In this document: positions 126 through 62,570 of the stretch, piece after piece | Layout of the letters: each line of letters opens with the position of its first letter | Position numbering within the stretch: position 1 is the first letter of the stretch | Source of the DNA: Adineta vaga | Taxonomy: Eukaryota; Animalia; Rotifera | Assembly: GCA_021613535.1 (NCBI GenBank) | Contig: CP075497.1 | Coordinates: forward strand, 8,221,488 to 8,285,487 | DNA length: 64,000 bases | Direction: 5' to 3' | The notes under the pieces: generated by a model | Database searches by the model: none | Seen by the model: the letters and a program-made list of their open reading frames with translations, nothing else | What the model was told of the DNA's origin: nothing | Translations under genes and position numbers: made by a program

Positions 126-2551
126 TTAATATCGGCTAATATCTCGACCAAAGATGTGCGTACGAACCCAATCAAAAGCAAGTAATGTTTTTGTACGTCC
201 AGTGAACATTTCCGTAAAATAAAATGATTTCCATAAATAAGCAGCACTACGACCCGATAATGGTTTTAAATCAACTAAATCAAGAAGTGGTTTTGAACCT
301 GTAAAATCAAAAACAGCTTCATCACCACCAACATATGCTAATGAACCCATATGTTTGTATAGAAATGGTTTTAAATTTTGTTGTTGAAAATCAGTTGAAC
401 GAATATCAGGTAATTGATTGAGTAGATTAGCAACATAACGACCTTCCTGAGATGCAACTTGAGCAGTTGCTGGTAATGCACGAATTTTCTGATCAGCTTT
501 TTCAAGAATCGAACGAAGTGTAGCAAGAGTTAAATAACCAGATTTCTCTTTATCAGCTTCTTCAAACGCTTTTTCAACTTTTTTCGAAAACATATCAAGC
601 TAAAATGAAAATTTCAGATTGTTTGCTTTTCTTTTCATTCATCTACAAACATGAGAAAAGAAAAGAACGATAATAAATAACATACTTGTGGAAATTCTGT
701 AATTTTCTTTTCGACTAATGTTCGAAATTGTTGAAGATCAAGTGAACCTCGATTTTGTGTATCAACTTCTTCAAATAATGATTGTATTCGATCAATTAAT
801 TTTGGTTGTTCAATTGTAGCACAATCTCCAAGAGCAAATATCGATCCATCATCAACACCTTTCACACGTAAATATCGATCGGTAAGCAGACCCATACGAT
901 TACTTTGAATATTCAAACCAATGATTTCTCGAATTTTATTTGTTAATGGTCGAGCTTTGATACCAGTTGCCCAAACAACAATTGAACATGGAATAGATTT
1001 AAGATCAGTTGAACCTTTTAATTGAATAACAACTTCACGTTGTTTGACTTCTTTCACGAATGTATTTATTAAAACTTGGATATTTTCACGATGAAAATGT
1101 CGCTCAGTATAATCACTTATTTTCTTATCCTGAAAACAGAAAAGTACGATTCAAATAATCTAATTTGAATAGTATTGAAAATAAACGAACCATCATTGAT
1201 AAAACATGATCAAGTGCTTCGATTAATGTTATTTTAACATCACTAGCAACTAAACGTGGAAAATAATGTTGAAGATCTTCACGAACAAGATCAGCGAGCT
1301 ACAATTTAATCGAATGCATAGATGACTAAAAATAGAATTCTAGACTCTTGGCATACTTCAGCTGCAAATTCAACACCAGTTGGTCCACCTCCAACAACGA
1401 CAAAATGTAGAAGACGTTTTCTTTCTTCGATTGATTGTGTTGGCGTCATGGCTGATTCAAATGCATCACTAATTGCTGAACGAATACGTCGAGCATCAAG
1501 AAGTTCTTTGAGAAAATGTGCATGTTCTTCAACTCCTGGCGTATTAAATGTATTATTTTCTGAACCAATAGCAACAACAAGAATATCATATTTCATATCA
1601 AATTGTGGTCGTGTTCGGACTAAATAAAAATAATGATGATTATTTGTTTTAGAAAAAGATATTCTTGTACCTGAATCTTTGATAATTCTTGATGAAGCAC
1701 CACTTTCACGTTTTGAAGGTTGTATTACTGCTTTAACATCATCACCACGAGCAACATTTATATTTCCATCAGTATTACATGTAATCACTTTTTCTTTTGG
1801 ATCAATATTAACACAAGTTGCTTCAACAAATTTAATACGTGGACCAATAAGTGAACGAATCGATTCAATTACCGTTCGAGTTTCAACTGTACCAACACTT
1901 ACCGAGGGCAATAATGGTGTCATCAGAAAATAATTACGTGGAGATACACAAACAATTTCGAATTTATTCGTATCAATATGTTTTAATAATGGTACAGCAC
2001 CCCAACCTAGCAAGATACTTGCTCAAAATACATGATCAATTTGAATCTTTACCTGTTCCTAAGATTACTATACGTGGTTTTGTACCAATAGACTTTTCCG
2101 AATCACTCATTTCGTGAAACCATTTATAGTGTTTATAAGCACGATAACTATAAAATGTGCCGAGACCAACGACGGTTATAATAACGATATTTCGTAAACG
2201 TCGTTTTAATCTTGCACCTAAAAGAAAAAGAAAACGATTCAGATTGTTCTAAATAGAAACAAAAACACGTGTCTCAAATATGAACTATTCGGACAGCATC
2301 TTATTCATGAGCATTGTTCTCTGTATCCTTTTAATACTAATACGTCTCAAAATTCTTCACAAACCGAAAGTTTGCTTCACTGGTTGCCTTGAAAACCATG
2401 CAAGATTCCTCGTAATGATTGGTTTGACATCATATAATTGTTTGAACGATAAATTTCGTCGTAAGTTTTTTTCTGTCAATTTTTGAAGAAGCAGAGTTGA
2501 ACGAGAGAACATCTTACTCTCTAAAACAAAAGCGAAATTTTCGAAATACAT
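126..2551 (-). CDS. Type II (alternative, rotenone-insensitive) NADH:ubiquinone oxidoreductase of the NDH-2/NDI1-NDE family, mitochondrial, with a degenerate EF-hand-like insert
   Basis: Six inferred exons on the minus strand at about 2551-2365, 2229-2053, 2006-1357, 1298-1191, 1129-686 and 599-126, separated by GT-AG introns of 46-135 bp. The spliced protein starts with a basic/hydroxylated mitochondrial presequence (MFSRSTLLLQKLTEKNLRRNL...) followed by a TM segment. It carries a first dinucleotide-binding motif (PRIVILGTGWGAV) and a second (HFVVVGGGPTGVEFAAE) that is nearly identical to the yeast NDI1 signature. An EF-hand-like loop (EEVDTQNRGSLDLQQFRTLVE) matches plant/fungal NDB external dehydrogenases but is degenerate at Ca-ligand positions 3, 5 and 12. 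The C-terminus (LKPFLYKHMGSLAYVGGDEAV) is typical of NDH-2. Confidence 0.8.
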
Positions 2552-4119
2552 TCATGTTATTTATTATGTCATATAATTAAAAGAGAAAGATTAAATGAAA
2601 AAAAAACCCACGAACGAAAACTATGCACGAATATTATTTCATTGGCTGATGCTTTAGAACCAGTAAGATATTTTTTATTTAAGTCATTTCCACACGATCG
2701 ATGGCGCTATAAAATACTCGTCTAATTTGACAGTAACGCAAGTAAAATAACAAACGTGTCCTCTCATAGAATCGTAAAGACCTCTAGATAACGTCTTTAT
2801 CCTTTTCCATCAAAAAATATTAGGAATATTCTAAATGAAGAGGGTGTGGGTGAGGATCATACTTAAATAATTGAATAGTTGAATTGAACTTTCAAGTTTG
2901 ATATTACCGTATACTTTTCAAGAGTAACTACTTTTAAATTTATAGATGTGTGACTTTCGTCTACTATATGTAATTCATGTATTGAAAGAAAGATTATATG
3001 ATTTTACCAAGATTTGATTGATAGTCTTATCACAAGCATGTAAAATAATGGTTTTTTGGAAAGTAACTACAGAATGAAGTATCACTCCTAACTGACATCT
3101 TTCGAGGAAAGAAACTTGATGCTATGAGTGGTCAGTTCCCTAGATTCATTTGTTTTAGTTAATGAACTTCGAAGTTCGACTATTGAAATGGCAAAATTTG
3201 GTCAAGTTGGTTGAAGTAATGTATAGATAAATCGAAATTTGTTCGAATCCACTTTTGAGAACATGTTACTCGATGATGATTTATGGTCTTTGATCCATTT
3301 TATGAAATAATTTCAATATATCTGCCTTTCTTGGACTGAGAGTAACAAGAAATATTTCATTTTATCAAAAATTAAACTACTTTATTTTTAACTCAAACAA
3401 GGTTTTAGTGATAATGACTATCGTATCAATATTCATATTCGTTCCACCAATCATCGCCGTAAAAATTGTTTGTTCCATTATTGAAAGAACATACCCTGTC
3501 AGCTTCAAATAAATATGTTTGTTAGATCAATACATATGATAATCGTAAATGATCTTTACAAAAAGTATATTTTAGATAGATCGAAGAAAATTTAATCATT
3601 TCTATATGAGATTTCTAGTCAAATCGAATAATGACTATGTGGTATGCTAGTTCCGATGTTCGAATCTACTCTCGAGACTAGAGTCAGGGATGTCTCTTTC
3701 AGTGGCACATAACTGTTCATGCTCTCGATATATTAACGATTTCCAACAATTTTATCACTATACATTCGGAGATTTTCATTCTTCAAATGATCGATATGAA
3801 GTTGTTGTACAATCATATTGTTATTTTCTTATCGAACTTGTATTTTTGTATTTACAGTTGATCAAAATCTTTCATATACTAATCTCTATTGTACTGATAA
3901 CAAGCGAGCGCTTAAAAGACTTTTTTTTGAATTTTGAACAAATATTTTTGAAGAATTTTTTGATCTTACCAAATGGCGCTTATTTTTTATCATTACTATT
4001 TGTCATTTAATTTGTTTTTACCTTCGACTATGTTTTTGTGCTATGTAATTTTCTTCATTTTTCTGAAACATTCCGAAACGATAAATATTACTAATCATAA
4101 TATACGAAAAATCGAACAA

Positions 4120-6896
4120 ATGTTTCCATTACCAACCAATGACCAAATGGAAATGCTTGCTGCTCAATTCAATCAAAATCCTAATTGGGAACATGGAAAT
4201 ATGCCTTTGACATTATCAGATATAGAGGAAACGACTCCAAATGATATTACAATCAGTTCACCTAAAAAAATTGGACCTGGCATTATTAAAGAAGGTCATC
4301 GTTTTCTTCCTGAACGACATCATGGATATCCAATTGATGGCAGGGGAGTTCATCCTGATTCGGAACATCATATATTTCTTGTTCGACATGGTAAACGAAA
4401 GAAAAAAGTGAACAAGATATGTATCAGTCGATTGTTTAGGTTTATATTTAAATACAGAAGATGATGCATCTTCACATCTACTTCGATACGGAAAATATCA
4501 AGCTCGAATGGCAGGCGATAAACTCAATTATATCATTCGAGATATAATTGAAAAGATAGGTCCTCTAACACGACCCATTAAATTAGTATCGAGTACACAA
4601 ACACGTGCATTTGAAACTCTTTATAATATTCGTTTACAACTTAGTAATGATTTTCCATATGAAACAGAATTTATTCAAGATACTGGTCTTACTGAATGCG
4701 TGTATGATTTTGTTTTCATTATTTTTCATCATTCTGAAACTGAAAAAGAAATAGACGAACGACTTAAACTTATAGACAACGATTAGTTTTCGAATATTAA
4801 TAATTTTCTTCTATTATTAGTGATATCAATAAAATACGTCTTCGTTGGATGTATTTTGTTCGTGAATATTTACAACCAATAAAATCAGATGAACGTGAAC
4901 ATACCATAACAATTATTGCTAGTCATGGAAATCTTTTAACAAGTTTTTCTTATATTATTAATAATTTCATTCACGAAAATCAACCTTATAATACATTTCA
5001 TCATTTCAATTTCCCTATTTCAACAGGAGTAACACATGCAGGAATATTATATTACAAGACGTATGGAAGTGAGCCAATTACTCAGCGAAGTTATATGCGT
5101 CAAGATGAAATTCCTATAACAGTTAATCATGCTCAATTAGGACGAGATTGGTTATATGAATGGGCTGCTCAACATCAATGTAGAGTAAGTAAAAACAAGA
5201 GCAACATTTCTTTTGTTCTATTGACAAAAAACTTATCGAATTCTATCCTTTTTCTTTCCTAATTCAAGTCAAATTATGGTCTCGACAATATGGAAAGATA
5301 CATCGCAGCTGCAATTACGCGTCTTGTTTTCAGTGTTGATAATTTTAGAAATTCATTACCTAACTATGTGGATATTCTTCACATGGAAATGGTAGAAGAA
5401 TATGAAACACATATTTTACCGATGTTAATGCATACTTGTCGTACATATCTCTATCATCTATCTTTAATGCGAACTAATACAGAGTTTCAATCATTTCATC
5501 GTTTAATGTCACCAGTACCGATTCCTGAAAGTGAAGCTGAACAAGGTACACCAGTATCACCACCAACCGATCGATTCAGTGCATATGCTTTGCCATATCC
5601 AGTTGATAATAGTATTCTCGGATTTGCTGGAAATGGTGATTTTCATCTAGCTTGGCTTTCACCTGATATAGTCAATCCAGAATCACGAAAACTTATCTTT
5701 TTACTACGACACGATAAGTAGCATATCAACATAATACACTCATAAACTATTTCCATTTTTACTTTTCTATCTTCTACGACTTAATGTTGATACTGGCGAT
5801 GAAAAAACATCATACCTTACTCGTCTTGGTATTAATCATGTACGTGCTGTAGTACAACAAATACATTATACTATTCATCGATATATGGAAGACTTGCCTA
5901 AGAATGCTCGCGTCTTACCAATTAGTGTAGTCAATGATCCAATACTCGCATCAGCTGAAACATGTTCTCATGTTCGAAGTCTTCTATTAACTGGAGAGTA
6001 TAATTTATCTGAACAAATGACAGATATTGGTCTAGAATTCAATTATTTTCAAAGAAGTATACATATGTTGAATTCATAGAAAGTAATTCCTTTCTTTTGT
6101 GAATATTAAAGAATCGAGAGATTTCAACATCTACCAACGTATGCAAGAGCATTATGCGTTCGAACGATATTTTCGTGCTGATCAAATGGAGCCCAAACGG
6201 CCTTCATTTCAGGTTCATGTTTTATGTGGAGAAGGACGATTCTTTTCAGGGCTTCGTCAAAGTTTCATTGAACTTAATCTACTTAGTAGACCATTACCAG
6301 AGGGAATACCACTAACTGGACGACTTGGTAATGGATTAAGTCATGCTGAAGCATTATTTTTCGAAGCAATTGGTTCTGATACTTTAAAATTACATAAATC
6401 ATTGGTTATAGATAGAGCAAGAGATCTTCCCGATAAACAATCAGTATCGACACGTTCTTCACTAATAATACCAATACCTGAAGTTCTAGCTTGGATACGT
6501 GATCGAAATGGACCTTGTACATTAAAACATTTTCTTAAAAATAAAAATCATTTATCTCAACAAATCAGTATTGGAAGTACTTATTATCATCATAAGCTCG
6601 TTAATGTACTAAAAGAAGAATGGAATCCATATCTTGCTGGTATTGAGATATCTTCATTTATATAGGAAATTGATTCATCACGAAGCTTATCTATTCTTTC
6701 AGGAATGTTTATCTATGCTTGTCGTCTTCAACTTACTTCATCTGATGCACGTGGATCTCAACGAGCACGAACTGCAAGCAAACAAACTGGAACTTCAAAT
6801 CAATGTCGAAGAGGAGATGGTGAGGATGGTGACGGTGCTACTGATTCAGCAACAGCAGCAGCAGCGGCGGCAGATCCTTCAGGTGATTGTACTTAA
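4120..6896 (+). CDS. Histidine phosphatase superfamily (branch 1, phosphoglycerate-mutase-like) protein with a long C-terminal extension of unknown function
   Basis: Coding blocks on the plus strand at about 4120-4390, 4458-4701, 4821-5184, 5269-5721, 5885-6056, 6112-6639 and 6703-6896. The catalytic RHGE motif is restored only after splicing (LVRHG|E across a 67-bp intron). A second family motif is VSSTQTRAFET (SSxxxRAxxT), and the EREHTITIIASHG motif supplies the distal His. The C-terminal half (blocks from 5269 onward) has no recognisable domain. Junctions 4701/4821 and 5721/5885 are not confidently resolved. Confidence 0.5.
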
Positions 6897-8130
6897 ATGA
6901 TAATCGATTTATCGATATATATATATATATGTATCTAATTTCCCTTTTTTATATTATGTTTAATAATATTTATTGAAAATAAATTCTTAAAAAAGAACTT
7001 TTGACATCTTTATCATGATGGCTTTTGCTTTCTGTAATATCGAATTTGCATGTCATTATTGTTCATACTTCATTATATTGCTAAGGCCGGATGCGTTGCT
7101 TTTCTCACGACATAAATGTCCTTCGACTCTAACGACAAAAAAGCGTCTTGTTGTTGTTGTCATTGTCAGATCCAATGATCAAAAAGGCGGTACGAAGTTT
7201 GCCGTTTTTCTTCCCACCCTCAAAAAAAACACAACTCCATGCATGCAAACAATACTATCCTATTTCAACTCTGTCAGTGTCTTGTTCATCATTAGTTTCT
7301 TTTTTCTCGACCTCATCTGTCCGTCTGATAATATAAGAAATAAAGACATGTTCAAGTATCTACAGTCATCGTCCATGCAATTATTATCTAGTTAACATAC
7401 ATACACGCATCTTCTTTCATTCACTTGTTCATTGCACGCGCAATCGACAATAGAAACATAAAAAGAAATGCAAATTTTGCTCATTGCAGATTAAAATGAG
7501 GTCATCAAATGACGTAAAGAAAAAGGACCTTTACTTGATTATTCTCATCAACATCATTCAATGAACAACGTACAGTAGTTTTCAAGTGACCTTTTTTCTT
7601 TTATTCTACTTCTAATCTACGCTTTCATATAATCAAGAGCAATCTGTCTGTATATAAAGTAAGATTGAAACTAAATGAATTTCATATGATTTTAATTATT
7701 CTTTCTTTGTCAATGAGTTTTGACTAGACGACAAACATGCTTTTTTCTTCTTCTTCTTCTATGAATAAAAGAGATTTAGATATCTGATAATGAACATCGA
7801 ATCATTCAAGTTGTTCACGTGGGTGATTTTTTCTAATTAATGTTTTCGACAGTTATCTATTCATGCTTGATCGATTGATTAAGGAGTAGCTTAATGATCT
7901 ACTTGAAAATAACATTCGAATTGATCTAACAATTTATTAAAATTTCTAGATGTATATACTGTTCAATGAATATTGTCTTTGTTTAATGTTGCAAAGTAAC
8001 GAAAAGAAATAAAACAAAAAAAAGCAAAAAATTATTCAAAGTTAGTTGTCGACGAGAACAATTGGCTAATAAAGCACTAATACGTTGATGTTTCAAAATA
8101 TCTAAATAAAGAAAAATAAAATTAATCAAA

Positions 8131-26395: not shown

Positions 26396-29300
26396 ATGAG
26401 TGGTCTAAGAAAATCATCACGGTTACGAAAACCTATTACAACAATCGATCAAAATCTTGATAATGATGATGATGATTTCGAAGACATATCGGTAAATTTG
26501 AAATCAAGAAAATCGTCGACACGTACATCCATCAAACGTCCATCAACCGATGATAATGATGATCAAGAAACAATCACACCAAAAAAGAAACAAAAGAAAA
26601 AACCATCGACAACAGCCACAAAAACATCACCATATTTTAATAATAAACCATCTGAAAAGGCAAAACCTGATTCACCTAAACCAAAAGCAAAAAAATCAGT
26701 CAAACAAAAACCTAAAACAACTACAAAAAAAGCGAATACAACTATTGATGAAAATATGGTACTATCAAATCAAACTAACAGTGTGACACGCAAAAGTAAA
26801 TAAACAATTTCAATTATTTTTCAATCAACAGAATTTTTTTATTAGCATCCAAAGGAAGTGATGACGGTAATAATAATTTTGATTCTGATTCTGATTCCGA
26901 TGAGGATGATGACGATGAAGGATGGGAAGATGTTCAATCGAAACCGAGGGAAGAAGTTGCTATTCAAAAAGTAATTCACTCATTCTTATTCCATAGATTT
27001 AATCTAGTAAATCTTTAATTATATAGTTACTCAAAGAACGTGAAGAAAGACAATCAACTATGGTTGATGGTGAAGTTGAAGTTAACTTAACTAGTGAAGA
27101 AGTCGCTGCAGCTCAAGGTAAACGAAAGAAAAATCTCAATTCAAAAGAACATCAACTAGAACTTCATTTAAAACGTGTATTAAAGAAAAATTTTCTTCAA
27201 AAACATAAGCATCATATTGTGTGTAATCTTGGTCATGGTTTTCATCTAATTAAAACATATATTCACAATCAAGAACTTAGTTCACTTATGTTATCTTTAC
27301 TCGATGAATCTATTACCAAACCTTTGATTTATAATGCTAAAACAACAAATATGAATGATATCCATCGACTTGTCAAATATTTCAATGAAGTTTTCATTGT
27401 AGTAGATAAAAATGAAAACGACGATGAGAAGAATCGACCAATAACAATCGAAAAATTACGTCAAGCAATGAGTGAACATTTAACACAATCATCATCATCA
27501 ATACGAGTGATTCTTTTTGCAATTTATGTTCGTCTACTTCGTTATGAATGTCGATTACTATTTGCTGCTGATTTACCACCAATTCGACCACGTTCTGCAA
27601 AACAAGATAAATTTCGTATACCACACGGTAGTCTCATTAAAAATATAAAGAAAACGAAAAAACAAACATTATCCGAAGATGAAAGCAGTAATAGTATGAG
27701 TAATGAAGATACATCACGTTTACATTCTCATGATCATTCATCTGATTTATCTCGTGTTGTTGCATCAAATTCATCACAATCAGTAAAAGATAATCGAGCA
27801 ATTTCACCAACACCAACAGTCGCTACATCGATAACAACGAAGTCAAAAATTCAATCACGTTCTTTACTACCACGATACTATTGGATTGAACTTTTTATTG
27901 AAACAACCGAAGATGGTTATATTCCCATTGATCTTCATACATCAAAAATTAATTCTCTAACAGAATTTGAAACAAATATTAAATTTCCTATGCTTTATAT
28001 TTGGGCATTTGATACAGATCAATCGAGTTCATATGCAAAAGATGTGACAAAAAGATATTCACAAAAATGGTTAACAACACCTTATCGTACATCTCATATT
28101 GAACATAAAACAAATGGTGATCCAAAATGGTATGAAAAATTAATGAAAAAATATCAACCGAAGGATAACAAGAAATCTAGACATTCACAATACGAAAATA
28201 AACAAATTGAAAGTATAAAGAGTTTGTTTATATTTAATCTAATCTACATTTGTGTATAATTTGTTTTAGATAAATTAGCTCAACAACCAATTCCTCAATC
28301 GAAAGCCGAACTAAATGGTCATCCATTATATGTCTTAAAATCGAAATTACTCAAATTTGAAGGCATTTATCCAAACGATACACCACCCGTCGGATGGTTT
28401 AAAGTAAGAAGATTGAACTGAACGAAATAGATATCGATTAATTGTATGAATTACATACTCGTATTTAAACATAGCTAAGAAAAGAAGTTAATATTTTTTT
28501 TGCGAATGAAAGAACCTATTTAAGAATAGTACATTAGAACTGGAACGGTCTATACTATTTAAACAGATAGCGTGTGCTCAAGAGGAATATCTTGTCGATG
28601 GGATCGTATACTTAGTAATATTTTCAGTATAATCGTCTTAAAAATGTCTAAGCATTATATCTAAATATAAACCTAATATCTATGTCATGATTAACAATTG
28701 ATGGCTACACAATAATGAAATAACCAATTTCGTTTTATTCTTTTAGGAAGAACCAATTTATCCGCGAGATAACATTCATATTTTACGTTCTAAACAAACA
28801 TGGCTTAAAGAAGCTCGACAAGTCAATTATGGTGAAGAACCATATAAAATCGTTGATGGACGAATAAAAAATGTTAGTCTTTTAAAAATCTTCTCTGTAA
28901 TTTCTTGAATTTTTGTTTTGATATTTAGATGGATCGTAAAATGGGTGTGACAACAAGACCTGAATTAGAACTATTCGGTGAATGGCAAACATCGGATTAT
29001 ATTCCGCCTGTTGCCAAAGATGGTATTGTACCGTGCAATGAATATGGCAATGTAGATTTATTCAAACCAGATATGTTACCAGTAGGCTGTGTTCATATTG
29101 TTGAACCAAATGCTGCTCGACTTTGTAAAAAATTAGGAATTAATTATGCAGAAGCTATTACTGGTAATTATCTTGAGGAAAAAAGATTTCGAAGTTCTTG
29201 ACTTTTGTTTACTCAGGTTTCGATGCACATGGTGGAGGATCACATCCGGTGATTGAAGGTATTGTGATTTGTCAAGAATTTGAACAAAGTCTACGTGTTG

Positions 29301-44238: not shown

Positions 44239-45954
44239 ATGGCTTCGTTACTCGTTTTTCTCATGTACCCTCTTGTTGGGCCATTTGCAATTTTAAAACT
44301 TTATGCAAAAAATCTCATGCGACAAGCTTATGGAAGACAGATTTTACTCAAATTAGCAGCATCTATGGTTAGTTTAGCAGTCGGTTCTCAAATTGCCTAT
44401 AGATATCGTTCGAAACATACATTGATATGGTTAACTAGTGGTTTTTTAGCACTTTTGATGAATTATTGGTATATAATTCCACTTCTTCTAATATACATTC
44501 TTCCTCTGATCAATTATATAATCAGATCTTGGACTTTATTAATCGATTCATTTACTGAACGAATAATTCGTCCGAATAGCACAAAATTTCGTCAACTATT
44601 ACCATCCATATGGACATTTGAATCAAATGAAAAACTTTGGCCGATTGAAAGTATTCGTTTTATGTTAACATATGGTTCAATTGGTCCAGCACTCTATTGT
44701 GGTTACGAAGTCTATTCTCACTTATGTTTTGGTATTAGTTTTAATTTATTCATTGCAATTGGTATAACAATTCTTGTTACAACAACATTATGGCATCTAC
44801 TTGACGCGATTGATCGTGATCTTTATCCATTTATATTCGCAATTATTATTCAATATTATATCATTCCAATTCGATCAGTTCTAAACATTCCCTTAACATT
44901 ATTATTAACAACATTTTTATTTCCATTTCTAAATAATCTTTTAACAAGTAATTCAATACAAGAATTTATACAAAATATCAAATTATTAAATTTTCGAACA
45001 TTTATCGAAGGAAATCAAAATTACAAACAATTTTTTACAGAATTTGTTAATCTATTTCTTACAATTTATTTCACATATAAAATTTCAATCATATCAATTA
45101 ATAGTCATGTATCTTATTTCTTAATTCTTTCAATGATTCTAGTTTTACCGATGTATTTTTATACGAAATTAATTCGTTTTATTTCTATTGAACCAAATAC
45201 AATCATGTTTTTATTTTCATCATTTCTTTTAAGTAAAGATATTTTACAACGTCGATTGAATGATCATTTTATTTATAAATATTTTCTTCTAACTATGATT
45301 TTAACATTCTATTTCGCTTTTATTTATCCTTTATTGTATCATCTATTACGTCGTTCAATAATTAAATCTGCACATCGAATTGGTTTGAAATTAAAATCTT
45401 TTCGAGAACAAATCAATCAACTTGCACATCAGTTTAATGAACAATATTTACGTATAACATATATTCATGATCAATCAAAATACTTCATTTTACATTTATG
45501 TAATCTATTTATTGCAAGTTGTTTGTTGTTCATTCTTCCAATAAATGTTTTATTACGTGTAATCTTATCTTTATTAAGTTATTTACTTATTGGTCGATTA
45601 TTATTAGCACGTGGAATAGAAATTCTTGCAATTGTTATATCACTTTCGACAAGTATAACAGCCGGTGCTGATGTTTATGCTCGATATAATAATTCAATTC
45701 TCATAACAATGTCAATTGCTTTGATTACATATATTTCGACACTACTGATTGCATTTCCAATAATCTATCGTTTGATACAATATTTTATTACACATTTACC
45801 TTTAATAAACTATTTTGATTGGTTTTTACAAAAGATTTTCTCATTTACTTGGTCATATTTCGATATCATTTGGCGACATATAAACTCGAGTTTTAATGAA
45901 GTTAAAATGAAGATCGAACAATCAAGATTGAATATATTTCGAAATAGACAATGA
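44239..45954 (+). CDS. Intronless polytopic membrane protein (about 12-14 predicted TM helices), family unknown
   Basis: A single uninterrupted 1716-bp ORF. Chance ORFs of this length are very unlikely in AT-rich DNA, where stop codons are frequent. About 14 hydrophobic stretches of 18-25 residues are separated by short basic loops (for example RYRSKH, RRSIIKSAHR, RNRQ at the C-terminus). Confidence 0.6.
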   Translation: MASLLVFLMYPLVGPFAILKLYAKNLMRQAYGRQILLKLAASMVSLAVGSQIAYRYRSKHTLIWLTSGFLALLMNYWYIIPLLLIYILPLINYIIRSWTLLIDSFTERIIRPNSTKFRQLLPSIWTFESNEKLWPIESIRFMLTYGSIGPALYCGYEVYSHLCFGISFNLFIAIGITILVTTTLWHLLDAIDRDLYPFIFAIIIQYYIIPIRSVLNIPLTLLLTTFLFPFLNNLLTSNSIQEFIQNIKLLNFRTFIEGNQNYKQFFTEFVNLFLTIYFTYKISIISINSHVSYFLILSMILVLPMYFYTKLIRFISIEPNTIMFLFSSFLLSKDILQRRLNDHFIYKYFLLTMILTFYFAFIYPLLYHLLRRSIIKSAHRIGLKLKSFREQINQLAHQFNEQYLRITYIHDQSKYFILHLCNLFIASCLLFILPINVLLRVILSLLSYLLIGRLLLARGIEILAIVISLSTSITAGADVYARYNNSILITMSIALITYISTLLIAFPIIYRLIQYFITHLPLINYFDWFLQKIFSFTWSYFDIIWRHINSSFNEVKMKIEQSRLNIFRNRQ

Positions 45955-48948: not shown

Positions 48949-49575
48949 GTAAGTTAATACAATCATCATTTGAGGAGTAGGAAAAGAAAAACAAACCAAA
49001 TCTCGCGTGAGCAATTGATTAGAAAATAGAAATGGTTTATCAATCGTCTGATTACATAAATCAGTTGATGATCTAAGCAAGTCGAGAGATGACTTTAATT
49101 TCCTGTTGAAAAAAGCAGATGAGAGATTTCTTACACAGCTGTCTCTATTGATTTTAGTCGGTGTTTAAAAGAGAACTTTGCGTTATTATCCTAGAATGTC
49201 AATTGAAATACAATGTAAAATAGAAACGAATCGTTCAAAAGAACTCTCTGTTTTCTCTTTCTCAAGAGCTTTTAAACGTATTCATACTTTTAACTATGAG
49301 AATAACAAGAATTATATAATCGATTGAGTTGTATTATTGATCAGTCTGTAAAAGAGAACTGCAAATATTGTTTCTATGTTTCAATGAACATTGTAAGTAG
49401 TTCATGTCTGTTGACACGTTACATCCGTTCACTTTACATACAATCTAATAGAAATATACCTAAAAGCATAGTGTATCAATAGTACCATCATTGTTCTCTC
49501 GATGGAATAAAGAAAATAGAATTAAGATAAATCAAATGATATTGTTTTTATTGATAATTGTTTTTCTTTGTAAAG

Positions 49576-52500
49576 ACTCAATCAATTCGTTCTCGACGAC
49601 AACAATCCGCTCAACCACCATCACGTTTAACAATACATTTTAATGAATCTTATATTGGTGCTATATCTCAAATAAAATATTGTCGAAAACAAACATCTAA
49701 AGATCATCTTGAACAAACATTTCAATTTCCAACGAAATATGAAACATTCCTACGTGAACGTTTACAAATCAATGATCAAGGACAATTATCTGTTTTACGT
49801 CCATTTGATTATGAAACATTTCAAACAGTTACATTTCAATTTCGTTGTTTAATCTTAGAACAACAAAATGGTGGAATGAATTTAACACGTGTCAATAAAA
49901 CAGAAGATATTCAACTCATCATTGATGATATCAATGATGAAGTACCACGTTGGATTATGGATGAACCATTTCAATATGGAACATATTTTGGTTATGTAGA
50001 AAAAAGTGCACGACCTGAAACACCTGTTTTTCGTTTTAAAGCATTTGATCCTGATACAACATCGAAATTAACCTATGAAATTGTTCAAGGAGATAAGAAT
50101 CTTTTTCATCTATCATCAGATGGAACATTAACAACAAATTCAAATCAACAATTAGTTTTTCCTATGTATAATTTAACTGTTCGTGCAATAGATTTAAATT
50201 CTCAAGTTTCATCAATGTCTCGTTCAAATCAAGCTCATCTTTTAATTCGTACTGATCGTTTTGATCCAAAATTTTTCCAACAAAAATATATCTTTAATGT
50301 TAGTGAATATACTCAACCATCGACTGTCATTGGAACAATTCGAGCAAAATCTTATTCAACCACAAGTGATAATCTAAGATATTTCTTACAACAACCAATT
50401 ACAGGTGGTACACAAACAATTCTTCAATCCGGAACAATTAGTAGTGGTGGTGGTGGTGATATGTATGAATTTAAAATTGATGAAACTGAAGGTTCAATTA
50501 AAATCTTAAAAATGCTCAGATATTCCGATCAACATAATAATAATACAAAATATTTTACAGGTAAATAAGGTTGAAAATGATGAATGAGATATCAAAGGAT
50601 AGAAAGAAAGATAGAATATAACATGATTGATGATGAATCTTATCAGTTGTTATTAATCTTGCGACGAAGTTTATCAATGTTCAGATACGTTGATTTCTAT
50701 TCAAACGAAAATTACCTGTCAGTCTATAATGAAAAGAATTATACTTGAGATGCAGAATCATTCATAACAGATGATTAAATACATGAAAATATATTCATTA
50801 CTGAATATTTTTGAGTTGATCAAGTTCATTGTATATCGTTGATTCGAAATGAAGCCAATATATCTGGAATAAATTTAATTACAACTAATAACTGATTTTT
50901 TCCTTGTGCATTTCAGGTGTTGTGAAAGAATTAAGTGGTTGGCAATTGCAATCTCATGTTGATATTGAAATTCATGTAATTGATATCAATGATAAAATTC
51001 CTACATTTAAACAAACGTATTATACGCCTCAAATTTCTGAAGATTATCCATTGAATACACCAATTATAAATTTTACTGTTACTGATGATGATGCACGTTA
51101 TACTCCAAATTCTAATATTACTCTTGATTTAATTGATCCATATGGAAAATTTGCGATATTCAATGATACACGTGTGTCAACATCAAATAATATTCAAGCA
51201 TATCTTATTGCTAAAGAACGTTTGGATTATGAATCTTTATCTCCATTAGATCGACAATATAAATTGAAAATAATTGCACGTGATCATGGACATCCACAAC
51301 CATTACAATCGGAAGCACAGATTTATATCACTATAACTGATGTTAATGATGAAGTAAGGAATTTAGTTAGAAAATTTATTTCCTAATTCGTACTTTTATT
51401 ATTTTATTTAGCCACCTGTTTTCAAAGAAAATCCAGTACAAAAAACAATTGCAGAAAATACTCAACGAGGAACATTTGGTAAAAATAGCTCATTAAATTT
51501 TTTCGTACGGAAATTTAGAAAAAAAATGAATTTGATTTTTTAGTGGTTTTTGTTAATGTTGTTGACCCAGAATACAATGATTCGGTTACTGTACACTTTT
51601 TACCAACATCGGAATATAATCCATTTCGAATTATTACAAGTCCTGGTGGTGGAAGAGTTGTTCTTGAACAAGCACTTCTACCGGATAAAGAACTTTATAA
51701 TTTAACTATTCAAGCATCGGATCGACTTGGACATACGTCTCAAGCACAACTTTTAATTACTATCTATGATGTTAATGATCATACAGTAAGCAGAGTATTT
51801 TTATATTTTGTTTCAATTTGAAAGCGTTTGTGTGTGTGTGTGTTCTTCTTTAGCCACGTATTGAACAATGTGAACAAGGAATAATTACAGCTTCGATTCG
51901 TGAAAATGCAACAATGAACACTCAAATTATAAAGATCAATGCGACAGATGAAGATCGTGGTTTAAATGGTGAAATTCAATTTTCATTAAAAGGAACAAAT
52001 GATCCTCAACAAGATTCCGATATGTTTTCAATTGATGCTGATACAGGAATGGTATCAAATAAAAAGAAATTAAAACATTTAAAATCAGGTTTTAGTGAAT
52101 ATACGATGACAATATTTGCACAAGATAAAGATCCATCAAATTCACGTTCAACACATTGTATTTTGAAAATAACTGTAGAAGATATCAATGATCAGTAAGT
52201 CGATTCACATTTTGAAAGAATAAAATTAACCAATTTATGTACTCTTTTAGTTATCCTTTAATCACATCACCAGCTCGTGATAATGATTTAATATCAATTA
52301 AAATGGAAAAACGTGTTAATTTCAATTATCCCGTTCTTGTCGTTCGTGCTAAAGATGAAGATAGTGGAAAAAATGCTCTTCTACACTTCTCACTCAAATC
52401 TCGTGATGATTGTTCGAATGGTATTGAATATTTCGTTATTGATCCTCAATCTGGCGTTATATCCACACGTTCATCGAATGTAAATAATCCAATTAATTTA

Positions 52501-55500
52501 CAACTTAAATATTGTCTTGTTGTACAAGTATGCGATTCACCTGATGATGGACCTCCAAAATGTTCCGAACGTAAAATTCAATTTCAATTGTCACAAGATG
52601 GTTTTGAACCACCCATATGGGCGCCTGAAACTGCGTTAACATTTCAACGTGTGATGAAAGTTGTTGAATTAGCTCAACAAAATATTGTTATTGATACATT
52701 TAAAGCATCTATCGCAAATGATTCAACAAAAAAAGTTATCTTCGAAATGGAACCATTTAATTGGACATGTTCAAATGCAGCATCAGCAAGTGAAAAACCT
52801 CGTATACCATTTTTATTAACACCAGATGAAAATGGACGAAATATTGCACGATTAGTTATCTATCAACCTATTGATGCTGATCCACCCACAGGTTGTACAC
52901 GATATCAGTTTAAGATTCGTGCCAAAAATGCAGCAATGGAAGCTTTATCATTAGAAAGTATCTATGAAATTGAAATCGTCGATTCAAATGATAATATTCC
53001 AATGTTCAATGTTAGTTCATATCGTGCACAAATATATGAAAATGAAGTCAAAGATAATCTATTACGTGTACAAGCTGAAGATAAAGACATTGATCCTAAA
53101 AATCGTAATACAACTTATTTTATTCGATGTCCTAATGATGGTATGAATTCTATTTGTTTTTAAAATATACAAATAAATTTTACTACATTGTCTCTTCTTC
53201 TAGGTAATCAACAAAATCTTCAATATCATTACAATAGTCCATTGTCCAATTCTTTATCATGTCAAGGAATTGTTTCGATTGATCCTGAAACAGGTTGGAT
53301 CAGTGTTCAACGACAATTTGATTATGATAATCCATCGGATCGTCGTTTTGTCTTTGATGTTTTTGCGAAAAATATTCTTCCATCAGATCGATGTAGTGGA
53401 CAAAACACGAAAGAATCTCAAGCACAATCATCTTCTCTATCATCTGGAGCTGATGCTAATCCAACCATTCAAATATGTGTTACAGAACATCGTGTACCCG
53501 TTATTATCGAAGTACTCGATAGAAATGATAATGCGGTAAGAAGTTTTTTCATTTAACCTTCATACGAATTAAATTACGAATTTCATTTTGTTTTCTTCTT
53601 TAGCCACAATTCAATAATTTACCTTATTTTACAAAAGTAATGGAAGATGCTGAACCAGGAACGACAATCTTTCATTTGAATGTTAGTGATGTTGATACTG
53701 ACGATATTTTAACATTTTCTATTGTTAATGAACAAGAAGCAAGCGCATTTGCAGTGAAAGAAAATACGGGTGAAGTGTATCTTGCTTCTGCTCTTGATTA
53801 TGAACGTGTTCAACAACATAGTGTAGAAGTTCAAGTTAGTGATTCAAATAATGAACATCGTGCTAGAACAATCCTAACAGTTATCGTCGAAGATGCTAAT
53901 GATAATCCACCACGTTTTCTGAATTTACCGAAGGAAATTGTTGTGGAGGAAGGTCGACAAACACTTGATTATGATCAGTTAATATTACGTCAACCAGCAC
54001 GAATCAAACGTGATACTCAAATGAATAAGAAACAAAAAGATTCGAATAAAAAACGGATTTCAACATCAACAAAATATCCTGATGAAGATTCCGATAGCTA
54101 TTCTTCTTCTCAACCCTATACATCCCGTATTATATATCGAGTTGAAGCAATCGATCCTGATTTTGGTCGTCCATTAAAATTGCCTATTCGATATACCTTA
54201 ACTTCATCGAATCCTTTATATACGCAATTCTTTGAAATTCATCCATTAAATGGAACGATTCATTTGAAAAAAGAATTAGATCGTGATCCACCCAATGGTT
54301 TTGATGAATGGTTATTAACTATTATTGCAGCAGATGAAGATGGTAGAGAAGATATGGGTTCAAAGAAAAATGCATCATGGTTAAAAATCATTGTTAAAGA
54401 TATCAATGATTTAGCTCGTAAGTTTCATTTCTTCTCATTTCTTATCATATACGTATTTCTTCTTCTAGCAATGTTTATTGACGTTGATCCAATTGGACAT
54501 ATACCTGAAAATGCACGAGCAGGTACACGTGTTGAAGGTTTAAGAATTAAAGCTACTGATTATGATAAATTATCTGAAAATACAACACGATATGCATTAA
54601 CATTGAATACGAAATCAATCGATGGTTCGGATGTTTTTCGTATTGATGAAATTACTGCAGATATTTATCTGAATGTTGATAATTATCTGGATAGAGAAAA
54701 AACTCCTCATCATAATCTATCAGTTATTGCAAGGGATTCAGGTGATCAATCTGGAAATTTGCAATCAAAAGAATTGAAAATTACGATTATTATTGATGAT
54801 GTTAATGATATGCCGGTAAGAATTTTTATTTTTGAATGAGAATATTATTCTATAGTTGTTGTTGTTGTTTCTAGCCACGATTCAAACCATCAAATCAACA
54901 AGCACAGATATCGGAAACAGCACAACGAGGCGATTTTGTTACTGAAGTTCGAGCAGAAGATGATGACGTGGGAGTAAATACACATTCTTTATATGAAATT
55001 ATTGAAGAATGTCAATTAACCAATGATCAAATGATACATTGTTCACGACCAAGATATTTCATTTTTAAAGAAACAGCATTAGCTGAAAAGGGTACAATTA
55101 TTCTCCTCGAACCAGTTAATTATGATCCACCTGATAATCAAGTAAAATTTCTCTTAAAAATCAAAGCAACAAATGGTGGCATGTCAGATTATGCCAATGT
55201 CACAGTATTTATCACTGATGCTAATGATAATGTTCCAGGTTAGTTTTAAGAATGATTATTTAAACTTTAATATAACTTTTCTTTTTCCTTTGCTTAGTCT
55301 TTTCTCAATCGGTTTATTTTGCTAATATTAGTGAAAATACACCATTGGAAAAAGAAATTCTTCGTGTACAAGCTACTGATAATGATGTCAGTCCAATAAA
55401 TAAAGAATTTATTTATCGTATTCCACCAGATCGTTCTCAATATGAAAATCGTCAACATTTACGTATTGATGCAATCAATGGTCGAATATATTTAAAGAAA

Positions 55501-58500
55501 AATTTCGATCGTGAAAAATCGTCAACAATCAGTTTACCTATCGAAGCTGTTAATAATCAAAGTTCGAATCCATTAGTTGGTCGTGCTGTTTTAGTCATTA
55601 ATGTACTCGATGTGAATGATAATCCTCCACGATTTGCTGAAAACTATTCTCCACGTGTACGTGAACATAAAAGCGGTGGAAAGATTTTCGAATTTGAAAT
55701 CAATGATCCTGATGATTCGAATAGTGGAAGAAATAAATTTCAAATGAAACTTGGTTAGTATTGTAGAGATTAGATTGAAGAGTATTTGACAAGTAAATGA
55801 ATTTTTTTATTATAAATTTTAGGTAAAAATAATGTTTGGCCTGAACAAGGTGATCCAAAATTTCGTCTGGATATTCAATATAGTGCTGATGGTAGACCAC
55901 GTGGTACTCTCAGTAGTTTACGTGAACTTGATCGAGAAGAACTTTGTCCGAAAGATGAACAATATAAAAATCAACGTTATTGTGGCAAATATTATGATTT
56001 GCCCATTTGGATGTCAGATGGTGAACAATCAGGCATTAATCATCTTCGCGTTCTTGTTGAAGATATTAATGATAATCCATTCAATAGTGGCTATAAATCT
56101 ATTGATATTTATGATTATAAACATATTCTAAGTAAATTATTATCAACATCAAATATATATCTTGGTACTGTGTATACTGATGATGAAGATGATTGGGATT
56201 TACATAATAAAGTTTTTGAACTTCAACCATCTGATGATAACAATTTCCTACATGTTGATAAAAATCTACAAACATCACGAACACCTGGTGCAATCTACTT
56301 AACTACCCAAAACAATAATGCAACAATCAAACATAGTAAGTTCAAATCTTACTTATCTTCTAATTCACATTCGATGTTTCTTATTTTCTAGATACTCCAT
56401 ATAAATATGATATTATCGTTCGCGATACACATCCACAATGGTTAAATCGAGATCCTCAAACATCTTATATTGAATTTCGTTTATATGAATTACCATCTGA
56501 TGTATTAGATAATGCTGCATCGATTCGTCTTCAAGATATAACAGCTGAAGAGTTTATTGAAACACGTCATCGAGATGAATCGTTCTTGGCAATTTTCAAA
56601 CGTTTAATCTTAGAAATCAATTCTCAAGCACGTCAAATAGAAGTTTTTTCAATACAAAATCATGAAACTTTAGTTCGTACAATCGATGTTTACTATGCAT
56701 TACATGGTAGTGGCTATCTATCGAAAGTAAAAATCAATGGTCTTGTTGAAATTTCACGTTCAAAATTAGAGAAATATTTCAATATAAGTCAGATAGGTAT
56801 CGATGAATGTTTAAATGCTGATCAACAATGTTTTACAATTGGTTGTTTGAATCAAATTGAAATTCAATCAAAACAACCCTATTTAATCAATGCCAATCAA
56901 ACTTCATTTGTTGGTTTAAATCTTAAAACAGTTGCCAAATGTGCTTGTGATACAGATGTTCATATTCAACAAGAAAAACAAAGAGAATTATTAAAAACAC
57001 AGAAATATTGTTTAAACGGTGGATATCCAACAAGAGATAATCATCATATCAAATGTGTTTGTCCTGATCATTCATTGTATAATGGTGGTGATCGTTGTCA
57101 ACTAACAAGTATTTCATTTGATGGTAAGTAAAGCAATGTTTTTCAATGAATAAAATCAAAACGTTCTCATTCATTCTTTCCGTAGGAAATGGTTATGGTT
57201 GGTATAAACCATTAACAACATGTGATACATGGATGTTATCTATTGAATTTTTAACTCAAGCATCGAATGGTTCAATCTTATATAATGGACCTTTGAATAA
57301 ACGAATACAATCGGAAGATTTCTTTGCAATACAATTATTAAATGGTCGTCTTTTAATTGATTTAAATTTTGGTAATGGAGCAAGTATTCGTCGACATTTG
57401 AAAACAAGTATAAATCTTGCTGATGGTAAATGGCATACAATTGAAATACGACAAATTAGTACTATTGATCATATTTTGGAAATTCTAATTGATTATTGTC
57501 CAATAACAAGTACATCGAAACAACTTAGTGAATGTCGATTCATGATTGAATTCAACGAAGATGATGTTTTTAGTAGCAATCAACCTTTACAGTTAGGTGG
57601 TATTGCTCTACAAGAAAAACAAAATCATCAACAACAATTACCAATGGAATATATGGGCAATTTTAAAGGTAAATATTGATTATTATAAATAAATAAGAAC
57701 AAAATTCTATTTCAACTTATTATTTAGGTTGTATTCGAAATCTTCGTTTTGCTGATGAATTATATGATCTTCATGTCGATTTACACAGTGGTCAATCAGT
57801 TAATCTACATGAAGGTTGTCTTCTAACTGATTTAAAATGTCAAAAACTTTCTTGTCAATCTAATAATGGTATTTGTGATGCTGATCTTTATCAAGCTCAA
57901 TGTGTTTGTAAATCTGGTCGAACAGGTTCCACATGTTCTCAAGACACGACTGCATATGACTTTACTTATGATAAACAAACTTGGACAGGTGATCGTGCAT
58001 CCTATGCTACATTTCGTCATCAACATAAACCTGATAATGATTTAACATATTCATCACAAATATTAAAATTTCAAATCATGTTTCGTACACGTGAAACATC
58101 GGATAATATCTTAACATTAATAGATTTTCATAATGATGATACATTCATGTTTTTGGAAATTAAATCAGGACATTTACAAGCACGATTTGGTTCGAAATCA
58201 GATACGCAATCAATTGATTTAAAACATGTTTCAGTTAATGATGGACGATGGCATACAGCTTATCTTAATCGTTATGGTCAACGATTATTCTTACGACTTG
58301 ATGATGGAGAATATTATCGATCGAATATGAGTTATGGAAAATCAATATGGAAACATTTTCCAAATACTCTATTAAATGTTGGTGCTCGAATTGATTCGGT
58401 AAGAATGATTTTTCTCTCGTGTAGAACTATAACGATTTTAATCAATTTTTTTAGGCTGTTCATAAAATTGTTACTGCCGATTTTAATGAGGGTTGTATTA

Positions 58501-59573
58501 TGGATGTTCGTTTCAATGGTCAAGTTCTTGATTTATTAAATGGTTCATCATCATCAGATATGAAATGGACATTTCAATCAAATATTAAAGAAGGTTGTGA
58601 TAATCTCGATAATTGGTGTCGTGGTGTTCAATGTCGTTCACCAGCATTTTGTGTCAATACATGGAGATATGGTCAATGTCAATGTACAGATGCATATAGA
58701 TATAATCCTGCAAATGAAACGTGTATTTTATATGATTGGTGTTCTGATATAACAAATCCATGTCATATGCCAGGTACAAAAAATTGTTTATATGAAGCTC
58801 GTGAAGATTCAATTAAATGTGAATGTAAATCACGTTGGCAAGGTGACCGTTGTACAATTAAAGCAATGCCATTAGCAGGAACATTTAATTGGCATATAAT
58901 TGCATCAACAATTTTCTGTCTAATAGTTATTTTACTTCTTGTTCTATTACTTGTTTTATTTACACGACAACGACAGTCGAAAAAGGCTTATATACTCGGT
59001 ATGGATGATGAAATTCGAGATAATATTATAAATTATGATGAAGAAGGTTGTCCAGATGAAGATCCAGTTACTTATGATATATCAACATTGAAAAAACCTG
59101 TTTTTACAGCAAATGGAAATACGAATACGAATCGAAATGGTCGACAAAATTCTGAATCGGAAAGTAAACCATTACTAAAAACTGCTTTAGATGGAAATAA
59201 TCAAACAGATTCATCGAAAAAGAACGTAATTCGAAAAGATATGCCACCTGTACCAGCACCAAAACCTGTTCTAAATAAAAATCAAATGAATGGTTTAAGT
59301 AATGGTATTAACGTTGGAGAATTTATTAAAGGTCGAATACGTGATATTGACGACGATCCATCTCAACCGCCATATGATAGTTTACAAGAATATGCCTATG
59401 AAGGTGAACCATTAGCAAGAAATGATGAATGTTCATTATCAACATTGACGATTACTTCGAAAGATCAGAGTGAAATCGATAAAGAATTTGAACTTGAATA
59501 TTTAAAAAACATGGGACCGAAATTTCAAAATATTGCTAAACTTTATGCTGGCAATGGAGAAAAAGAATCTTAA
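49576..59573 (+). CDS. Classical cadherin of the invertebrate type-III architecture: multiple extracellular cadherin repeats, EGF-like and laminin-G modules, a single TM and a catenin-binding cytoplasmic tail
   Basis: Sixteen exons with mini-introns of 50-345 bp: 49576-50560, 50917-51353, 51412-51478, 51544-51785, 51854-52194, 52251-53140, 53204-53535, 53604-54417, 54469-54815, 54875-55238, 55298-55753, 55823-56335, 56392-57142, 57186-57668, 57728-58398 and 58453-59573. The prodomain ends at a furin site RSRR. At least 12 EC repeats are bounded by DxNDNxP-type linkers (DINDEVPRW, DVNDE, YDVNDHT, DSNDNIPMF, DRNDNA, DANDNPPRF, DINDLA, DVNDMP, DANDNVP, DVNDNPPRF, DINDNPF) with internal DxD/DxE Ca-binding motifs. 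The membrane-proximal region has Cys-rich EGF and LamG modules, a TM segment IIASTIFCLIVILLLVLLLVLF, and the tail ...YDSLQEYAYEGEPLARNDECSLSTLTITSKDQSEIDKEFELEYLKNMGPKFQNIAKLYAG. This tail matches the beta-catenin-binding consensus of classical cadherins. Confidence 0.9.
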
Positions 59574-62426: not shown

Positions 62427-62570
62427 ATATATGCATCATCACTTTCTGTTCTTTTTTCTTTTTGATCATCACAGGTAAAAGGTCTATTCTCATTGCAATA
62501 CATAGTAGTAACTTACATTGTGAAATATTTTATCGATTGCGTCATATATTTATGATTGAAAGAAGTTAAG

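Follow-up and report, generated by a model that had tools for sequence, protein, structure and literature searches.

A type II NADH dehydrogenase of the NDB type in a bdelloid rotifer genome, with a non-canonical EF-hand pair and a probable origin in a red-alga-like donor

The window considered here is a stretch of 64,000 nucleotides from the bdelloid rotifer Adineta vaga (assembly GCA_021613535.1, contig CP075497.1, positions 8,221,488 to 8,285,487 of the forward strand), and all coordinates below are counted from its first letter. At one end of the window, on the minus strand, positions 126-2512 carry a gene for a type II NADH dehydrogenase (NDH-2), best explained as a single-subunit, FAD-containing and non-proton-pumping NADH:ubiquinone oxidoreductase of the NDB type. 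A preliminary description of the same DNA, made from the letters alone, had recognized an alternative type II NADH dehydrogenase in an animal genome, and on both counts it has held. Its account of the gene structure, of the EF-hand insert and of the ancestry of the gene had to be revised.

By joining open segments at GT-AG boundaries we obtained a model of seven exons and six introns, the six exons announced earlier being in fact the number of introns. The coding sequence runs from an ATG at 2512-2510 to a TAA at 128-126 and comprises 1938 nt, encoding 645 residues, with a GC content of 34% that falls to 14% at third codon positions (GC3). Exon 1 (2365-2512, residues 1-49, phase 1) encodes a presequence-like N-terminus rich in K, R, S and T and is followed by intron 1 (2218-2364, 147 nt, GT..AG), for which A. 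ricciae has an intron at the equal position. Exon 2 (2053-2217) holds a basic cluster, RLKRRLR, a hydrophobic glycine-rich segment, NIVIITVVGLGTFYSY (residues 59-76, 2138-2191), and the opening part of the first GxGxxG motif, GTGWGA; intron 2 (2007-2052, 46 nt) falls inside the codon for the second glycine of this motif, Gly105. The FAD-binding Rossmann fold follows in exon 3 (1671-2006). Intron 3 (1620-1670, 51 nt) is in frame and free of stops and could be misread as coding; exon 4 (1357-1619) carries the second GxGxxG, GGGPTG (1375-1392), of the NAD(P)H fold. Beyond intron 4 (1299-1356, 58 nt), exon 5 (1191-1298) includes Glu331 (1218-1220) at the end of beta-2 of this fold, in the context TLIEAL. 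Intron 5 (1130-1190, 61 nt) separates it from exon 6 (686-1129), in which the catalytic core ends (GDCA) and an EF-hand insert begins, its first half containing the loop EF1, DTQNRGSLDLQQ (728-763). Intron 6 (600-685, 86 nt, phase 0) lies after ..EFPQ, and exon 7 (126-599, stop included) contains the loop EF2, DKEKSGYLTLAT (519-554), the motif TAQVASQEG (441-467) and the NDH2_C membrane-association domain (141-353).

This model agrees with the Pfam and PDB matches and with the introns of bdelloid relatives. The annotated orthologue of A. ricciae (P0001, locus L001) matches it at six of six intron positions and phases (codon positions 49.1, 104.1, 216.1, 304.0, 340.0 and 488.0). The intron of A. 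ricciae at the site of intron 3 contains a stop, and the 17 residues that intron 3 would encode are missing from all orthologues and RNA contigs. The latter are uninterrupted 2.1-kb contigs from two sequencing runs, encoding a protein of 647 residues with 80% identity. Their uninterrupted frame, their flanks resembling untranslated regions and an Illumina adapter remnant still present on one of them identify them as assembled transcripts, and they show zero indels against the window model at the six exon junctions. The contigs come from related species rather than from the species of the window; in these relatives, the orthologues are transcribed and spliced as in the window model, and the exon joins proposed earlier are borne out at this level. 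Translation had previously been started at an in-frame ATG at 2551, but the 13 additional residues are found in no orthologue, while all orthologues start with MFSRS or MLSRT at the position of the ATG at 2512, which is most likely the true start. Compared with A. ricciae, dN/dS amounts to 0.12 for the gene as a whole, with 0.05 for the catalytic core and 0.20 for the EF-hand insert, and the overall and core values place the gene under purifying selection. On this basis, and with both folds, the quinone-site motif and the C-terminal membrane-binding domain intact, it is best explained as a functional nuclear gene.

A separate feature of exon 3 is a surface insert at residues 184-216 (1672-1770, minus strand), DGNINVARGDDVKAVIQPSKRESGASSRIIKDS, which ends at intron 3. 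It is predicted to be disordered, with low confidence (predicted local distance difference test, pLDDT, below 50), shows the highest dN/dS of the protein (0.37) and includes an RGD tripeptide.

Several independent comparisons converge on the identity of the protein. Pfam recognizes Pyr_redox_2 (1.1e-45), NDH2_C (1.6e-17; 63.8 bits against a cut-off of 27.7), Pyr_redox (3e-12) and EF-hand_1 (31.9 bits against 25.4), and among solved structures the sequence matches yeast Ndi1 (E=1e-80) and Plasmodium falciparum NDH2 (PfNDH2, 1e-74) over the full length. Both dinucleotide folds announced earlier are present, GTGWGA at residues 103-108 and GGGPTG at 293-298. The second had been called nearly identical to the yeast signature, and with its flanks, FVVVGGGPTGVEFAAEL is identical to Ndi1 IVVVGGGPTGVEAAGEL at 14 of 17 positions. 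The GDCA strand, both GxGxxG motifs and TAQVAxQxG are all conserved, and within TAQVASQEG, 43 homologues show no variation at T533, A534, Q535, V536, A537, Q539 and G541. We take this AQxAxQ-type motif to be the quinone site, as in the structures of Ndi1. A structural model computed with AlphaFold2 (AF2) from the 43 homologues reached a pLDDT of 83 and a predicted template modelling score of 0.79. Its best structural matches in Foldseek are all NDH-2: PfNDH2 (TM 0.90, E 3.6e-50), Ndi1 (TM 0.86) and bacterial enzymes. Ndi1, which faces the matrix, and PfNDH2 share catalytic fold and motifs with the window protein at 29-31% identity but, unlike it, possess no EF-hand insert.

Plant NDB enzymes (AtNDB1-4 and StNDB1) share the domain plan of the window protein, with an N-terminal extension bearing a hydrophobic segment, two Rossmann folds, a pair of EF-hands inserted in the equal loop and an NDH2_C domain, yet their identity to it is only 38-41% and they form a separate subclade. 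In plant enzymes, the residue at the end of beta-2 is Glu in the NADH type and Gln in the NADPH type, as PMC4587368 reports after Michalecka 2004. With Glu331 at this place, the substrate of the window protein is predicted to be NADH rather than NADPH. The same dichotomy exists among bdelloid paralogues: a second group (P0020, P0021 and P0023, from A. steineri, A. vaga and A. ricciae; locus L005, 8001-10251), 65-72% identical, shares four of six introns with the window group, lacks the insert at residues 184-216 and carries Gln (TLIQS) where the window group has Glu (TLIEA). As judged from these residues, the bdelloid split repeats that of plant NDB1 versus NDB2-4.

The N-terminus had been described as a mitochondrial presequence and is indeed presequence-like. 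Residues 1-58 include 15 K or R against 2 D or E, followed by RLKRRLR and the uncharged glycine-rich NIVIITVVGLGTFYSY. The Kyte-Doolittle maximum over 17 residues (1.44, residues 60-76) marks the most hydrophobic window of the protein, flanked by basic clusters, and the AF2 model predicts a helix at residues 49-91. Nearly every member of the family examined, from plants to cnidarians, has a comparable hydrophobic segment ahead of its first Rossmann fold, and the whole arrangement is consistent with a mitochondrial presequence followed by a membrane-sorting segment. This layout, typical of the NDB family, would direct the protein to the mitochondrion. Plant NDB1 faces the intermembrane space (PMC4587368), and by analogy the rotifer protein would be located on the intermembrane-space side of the inner mitochondrial membrane, where an external enzyme of this kind could oxidize cytosolic NADH and pass the electrons to ubiquinone, bypassing complex I.

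An EF-hand-like insert as in external NDB and NDE enzymes, also announced earlier, occupies residues 447-527, between the GDCA strand and the LPxTAQ helix, and aligns column for column with the inserts of plants, cnidarians and amoebozoans. The single EF-hand implied by the preliminary description, which has Q, R and Q at positions 3, 5 and 12, is real and degenerate (EF1, residues 463-474). The insert however contains two EF-hand motifs, and the second one (EF2, residues 504-515), 30 residues downstream of the first, had been overlooked. It is the better EF-hand, since it passes the Pfam EF-hand_1 cut-off despite E at position 3 and T at position 12. Under a PROSITE PS00018-type pattern, the window protein has no canonical loop: EF1 fails at positions 3, 5 and 12, and EF2 at positions 3 and 12.

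Of 29 bdelloid sequences tested with the same pattern, 23 have no loop that fits it. EF2 is canonical in five sequences of Rotaria magnacalcarata, in Didymodactylos (P0060, with Glu at position 12) and in five of five red-algal homologues; R. socialis P0012 keeps Glu12 but fails the pattern with Ala at position 6. Across the bdelloids, Glu occupies position 12 in Didymodactylos and in copies of R. magnacalcarata and R. socialis; it is replaced by Asp in contig P0017, by Arg in one group of R. sordida, and by Thr or Ala elsewhere, a distribution indicating that the canonical state is ancestral and was lost in most bdelloid copies, including that of the window. EF1 has degenerated in every bdelloid, and red algae too show it in a degenerate or partly deleted form. 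Two canonical loops are present in several of the tested sequences from cnidarians and amoebozoans. Plants have only EF1 canonical and the second motif degenerate, the reverse of the bdelloid and red-algal lineage. With neither loop holding a full set of canonical ligands, the window copy is probably independent of Ca2+ or weakly responsive to it, like AtNDB4, a Ca2+-independent NADH dehydrogenase of the NDB family (PMC4587368) and its closest functional analogue. The EF-hand pair would then be retained as a folded module, with a Ca2+ control that is probably weak or lost. The earlier statement that the loop is kept structurally stands; the accompanying loss of Ca2+ regulation is plausible, and less secure than had been stated, with EF2 near-canonical and two pattern positions off.

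Of the alternative explanations, the one that survives best holds that the enzyme is still a Ca2+ switch, EF2 binding the ion through D1, E3, S5 and T9, plus water or Thr12. Besides the Pfam score of EF2, the AF2 model predicts the insert as two helix-loop-helix units (pLDDT 80-90), the insert evolves under constraint (dN/dS 0.20), and a canonical EF2 is maintained in other bdelloid copies and in every red-algal homologue. Against it, the pattern needs Glu or Asp at position 12, where the window copy has Thr, and D, N or S at position 3, where it has Glu; most bdelloid sequences likewise have no fitting loop, and AtNDB4 illustrates that a deviant EF motif can go with Ca2+ independence. We regard a preserved Ca2+ switch as doubtful, though a serious contender.

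As to the ancestry of the gene, the top matches are bdelloid (A. ricciae 86% identity, A. steineri 85%, Rotaria sordida 83% and A. vaga 82%; none identical), and the bdelloid orthologues as a whole (these Adineta species and Rotaria spp., 78-86%) have 645 residues, identical introns and a syntenic neighbour. The best non-bdelloid matches are unicellular red algae, Erythrolobus (59%, 690 bits), Porphyridium (56%) and Rhodosorus (53%), with cryptophytes next. These NDB-like proteins of red algae and cryptophytes (Porphyridium purpureum, Erythrolobus, Rhodosorus, Purpureofilum, Guillardia and Baffinella) are the closest relatives outside the bdelloids, at 50-60% identity, and share with them a degenerate EF1 and an EF2-bearing insert. 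The red-algal EF2 is canonical, unlike that of the window, and Guillardia NDH-2 is devoid of the insert altogether. The best animal match outside the bdelloids, from the octocoral Dendronephthya, reaches only 40% with 433 bits, about the score of plant NDBs, and among the best 120 matches listed no other animal protein outscores the latter. Monogononts, Seison and acanthocephalans are absent from these 120 matches (down to 417 bits), which come from a search that was not restricted by taxon. With the octocoral as query, cnidarians and then plants are retrieved, with zero bdelloids in the best 120 matches. Bdelloids excluded, the best non-metazoan score exceeds the best metazoan one by about 257 bits, far above the hU threshold of 30 for calling bdelloid genes foreign (Boschetti et al. 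2012, PMC3499245) with the reservation that ours are HMMER and not blastx bits.

A neighbour-joining tree of 51 sequences (541 sites, 200 bootstraps) unites the bdelloids, including the deep-branching Didymodactylos, in one clade (100%), nested among red algae, cryptophytes and Tetraselmis. A bootstrap of 100% also divides this larger group from a clade of cnidarians, the sponge Oscarella, plants and amoebozoans. Within the larger group, the bdelloids are sister to Porphyridiales with a bootstrap of only 38%. Fixed alternatives were then compared by maximum likelihood with a home-made program (Gonnet-derived reversible matrix, four gamma categories, nearest-neighbour interchange search). The preferred topology places the bdelloids as sister to the whole red alga and choanoflagellate group, with a support of 0.80 by resampling of estimated log-likelihoods (RELL). 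A sister relationship with Porphyridiales is not rejected (log-likelihood difference, dlnL, -5; z 1.0; RELL 0.15). Placing the bdelloids at the base of the subclade, outside the rest of it, costs more (dlnL -17, z 2.1, RELL 0.009), and their union with cnidarians and sponge far more (dlnL -198, z 7.2, RELL 0). Given the small deficit of the Porphyridiales placement and its low bootstrap, no specific donor can be named. The preliminary description had proposed a phylogeny as a check and a place in the AIFM2/FSP1 clade as refuting; sequence and structure matches put the gene in NDH-2 proper, and the trees separate it from the NDH-2 of cnidarians and sponge.

In a search of 1.84 billion representatives, clustering at 50% reduces the whole subclade to about five of them. 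One member is an intronless gene (P0030, locus L004) on a contig of 5366 nt and 31-40% GC from Logan SRR26424591, 49% identical to the window protein. Another is a choanoflagellate, Salpingoeca macrocollata (P0038, EukProt), 55% identical to the window protein; its match list includes no other choanoflagellate, despite the many choanoflagellate transcriptomes in the database. A holozoan paralogue uniting choanoflagellate and bdelloids was tried as the best reading and rejected (dlnL -26 to -54). Grouping the bdelloids with this single choanoflagellate costs 26 to 33 units (z 2.2-2.8, RELL at most 0.001), and a clade of both basal to the algae, the topology that vertical descent of an old paralogue predicts, costs 53.5 (z 3.6, RELL 0). 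The choanoflagellate member may represent a second algal transfer or a transcriptome contaminant; choanoflagellates carry many algal genes (PMC4046809).

Introns and an indel were compared as well. Two cnidarian genes (Dendronephthya and Rhopilema) share six intron positions, with none of which any of the six bdelloid introns coincides. The genes of Porphyridium and Guillardia are intronless. That of Rhodosorus has nine introns, one of which (after YPQ, phase 0) coincides exactly in position and phase with bdelloid intron 6, a coincidence that is no more than suggestive, its probability by chance being about 3-5% by a hand estimate. An insertion of five to six residues after YPQ characterizes all cnidarian sequences but Hydra, as well as the sponge Oscarella, and is found neither in bdelloids nor in red algae.

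Two side observations concern the introns of the family at large. The NDB genes of Rhodosorus marinus (L007) and of the plant Turnera subulata (L010) have two intron positions exactly in common (alignment columns 433.0 and 810.0), which suggests that introns common to red-algal and plant genes are old introns of the family. Plant, bdelloid and cnidarian genes all have an intron within three codons of window residue 340, at exact sites that differ.

The preliminary description had called the gene clearly native, on account of its introns and AT-rich codon usage. Both features are there (six introns, GC3 of 14%), but they demonstrate no more than residence and long adaptation, and not native descent: in bdelloids, about 10% of transcripts are foreign, and the published analysis depicts introns in foreign genes (PMC3499245). 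Phylogeny, intron positions and indel all separate the gene from cnidarian and sponge NDH-2 and place it with red-algal and cryptophyte genes. Vertical descent from an animal ancestor, with retention in bdelloids and loss in most bilaterians, nonetheless has arguments of its own. NDH-2 occurs in some animals (Matus-Ortega 2011, as cited in PMC7056681), and the cnidarian and sponge enzymes (Dendronephthya, Rhopilema, Hydra, Clytia and Oscarella) are of the EF-hand type and encoded in animal genomes, like that of the window; the bdelloid gene has host codon usage and a stable synteny in addition to its introns, and the choanoflagellate homologue in the subclade makes a holozoan "type B" paralogue conceivable. 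But those cnidarian and sponge enzymes form a separate subclade (100% bootstrap), most with two canonical EF loops and with six conserved introns of which bdelloids have none. The bdelloids are without the post-YPQ insertion of the sponge and of cnidarians other than Hydra, and only one choanoflagellate transcriptome of many gave a match in the subclade. With 198 log-likelihood units to pay for joining bdelloids to cnidarians and sponge, and 26-54 (z 2.2-3.6) for holozoan monophyly within or basal to the subclade, we consider a native origin unlikely.

Two further alternatives can be set aside. An AIFM2/FSP1- or AIF-like oxidoreductase instead of a respiratory NDH-2 would account for the Pyr_redox_2 superfamily, which is common to both, and for the weak FSP1/AIFM2 matches at 1e-8 to 1e-5, but it has hardly any probability left beside the full-length matches to Ndi1 and PfNDH2 at 1e-80 and 1e-74, the NDH2_C domain, the AQxAxQ motif and top structural matches that are all NDH-2. 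Algal or protist DNA co-assembled with the rotifer, to which the algal affinity of the nearest non-bdelloid relatives might point, is just as improbable in view of the DE-cadherin and other animal genes on the same contig, the synteny with A. ricciae, a GC3 like that of its neighbours, introns of bdelloid size at positions common to four other bdelloid genes, and an identity of only 50-59% to any alga.

The surroundings of the gene document its residence in a free-living animal. Its GC3 of 14% compares with 12-19% in genes elsewhere in the window. The head-to-head upstream neighbour (3973-7395, plus strand), with five exon-like open reading frames (ORFs) that are colinear in tblastn at 46-76% identity, is orthologous to the gene adjoining NDH-2 in A. 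ricciae, which makes the locus syntenic; the A. ricciae orthologue is also adjoined by genes for a G-protein-coupled receptor and an immunoglobulin-domain protein. Further along the plus strand lies a DE-cadherin-type classical cadherin gene (49558-59573), with cadherin repeats, Ig_Shg (56586-57131), Laminin G (57146-57679) and a Y-type LIR tail (58500-59573). Linkage to animal genes, matching GC3 and conserved synteny together establish the gene as part of the genome of a free-living animal and not a contaminant, and the animal placement made earlier agrees with this and with the bdelloid top matches. The suggestion of a parasite drug target, on the other hand, falls away: the host is a free-living bdelloid rotifer, and the NDH-2 of the window consequently offers no drug-target lead.

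Thirty other ORFs of the window were compared with Pfam as context. The remainder of the plus strand includes exons of a Rad4/XPC DNA-repair gene (27060-28259), exons of a sugar transporter of the major facilitator superfamily (60741-61862) and exons of a gene for an HSP20 small heat-shock protein (62556-63293). An ORF at 23040-23792 (plus strand) matches ADPrib_exo_Tox, a bacterial ADP-ribosyltransferase exoenzyme family (29.9 bits against a cut-off of 23.4), and lies within a run of plus-strand ORFs between 19.3 and 25.4 kb that is otherwise without Pfam matches; it may be another foreign-derived bdelloid gene. At 44239-45954 (plus strand), an uninterrupted ORF of 571 residues without Pfam match would be an unusually long exon for intron-rich, AT-rich DNA.

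Taken as a whole, the gene is, with reasonable confidence, a functional NDB-type NDH-2, predicted to be external on the mitochondrial inner membrane, probably with weak or lost Ca2+ control, and most likely acquired horizontally long ago from a red-alga-like donor. The capture would have preceded the bdelloid radiation, and it would have been followed by gain of spliceosomal introns and by full amelioration towards host codon usage. The acquired gene would then have duplicated into a Glu-type, NADH-like lineage and a Gln-type, NADPH-like one. The fuller scenario, in which a captured red-alga-like bypass enzyme gained introns, duplicated into NADH and NADPH forms, progressively lost Ca2+ control in most copies and possibly serves a redox role during desiccation and rehydration, is offered more tentatively, as a conjecture that falls somewhat short of being evenly balanced.

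Several points weigh against these interpretations. EF2 keeps D1, S5, G6, L8 and T9, exceeds the Pfam cut-off and lies in a confidently predicted fold, with which a low-affinity binding of Ca2+ or Mg2+ is possible. We infer targeting and membrane side from composition and homology alone, and the NADH:quinone activity of the bdelloid enzyme from sequence and model. The likelihood comparisons concern one gene of 541 sites and a home-made program, and the preferred tree leaves the sister group of the bdelloids within the algae ambiguous. Finally, the presence of Salpingoeca macrocollata in the clade formally leaves room for an old paralogue with many losses.

Enzymes of this kind are not new. NDB-type NDH-2, including Ca2+-independent forms, are already well known, and their occurrence in some animals has been noted (Matus-Ortega 2011 and McDonald & Gospodaryov 2019, both as cited in PMC7056681). 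The bdelloid orthologues are likewise already deposited with machine annotation, under the names "EF-hand domain-containing protein" or "NADH:ubiquinone reductase (non-electrogenic)". Within the library searched, full-text searches returned no paper linking bdelloids or rotifers with NDH-2, and the supplementary text files of Boschetti 2012 gave no match for NADH dehydrogenase terms.

NDH-2 enzymes are studied as complex I bypasses in the contexts of therapy, ageing and drug targeting, and their distribution in animals is patchy and partly mapped. Bdelloid rotifers now join the animals that carry one. The states of their EF-hands, canonical at EF2 in Rotaria magnacalcarata and Didymodactylos and with Thr or Ala at position 12 elsewhere, constitute a natural series in which the Ca2+ gating of NDB enzymes could be tested. 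The case also teaches that introns and host codon usage cannot be taken as a sign of native origin when, as in this lineage, about 10% of the expressed genes are foreign. If the algal origin is true, it would represent the transfer of a core mitochondrial electron-transport enzyme from an alga to an animal, and would mean that animals can recruit a central respiratory enzyme by horizontal transfer, beyond peripheral metabolism.

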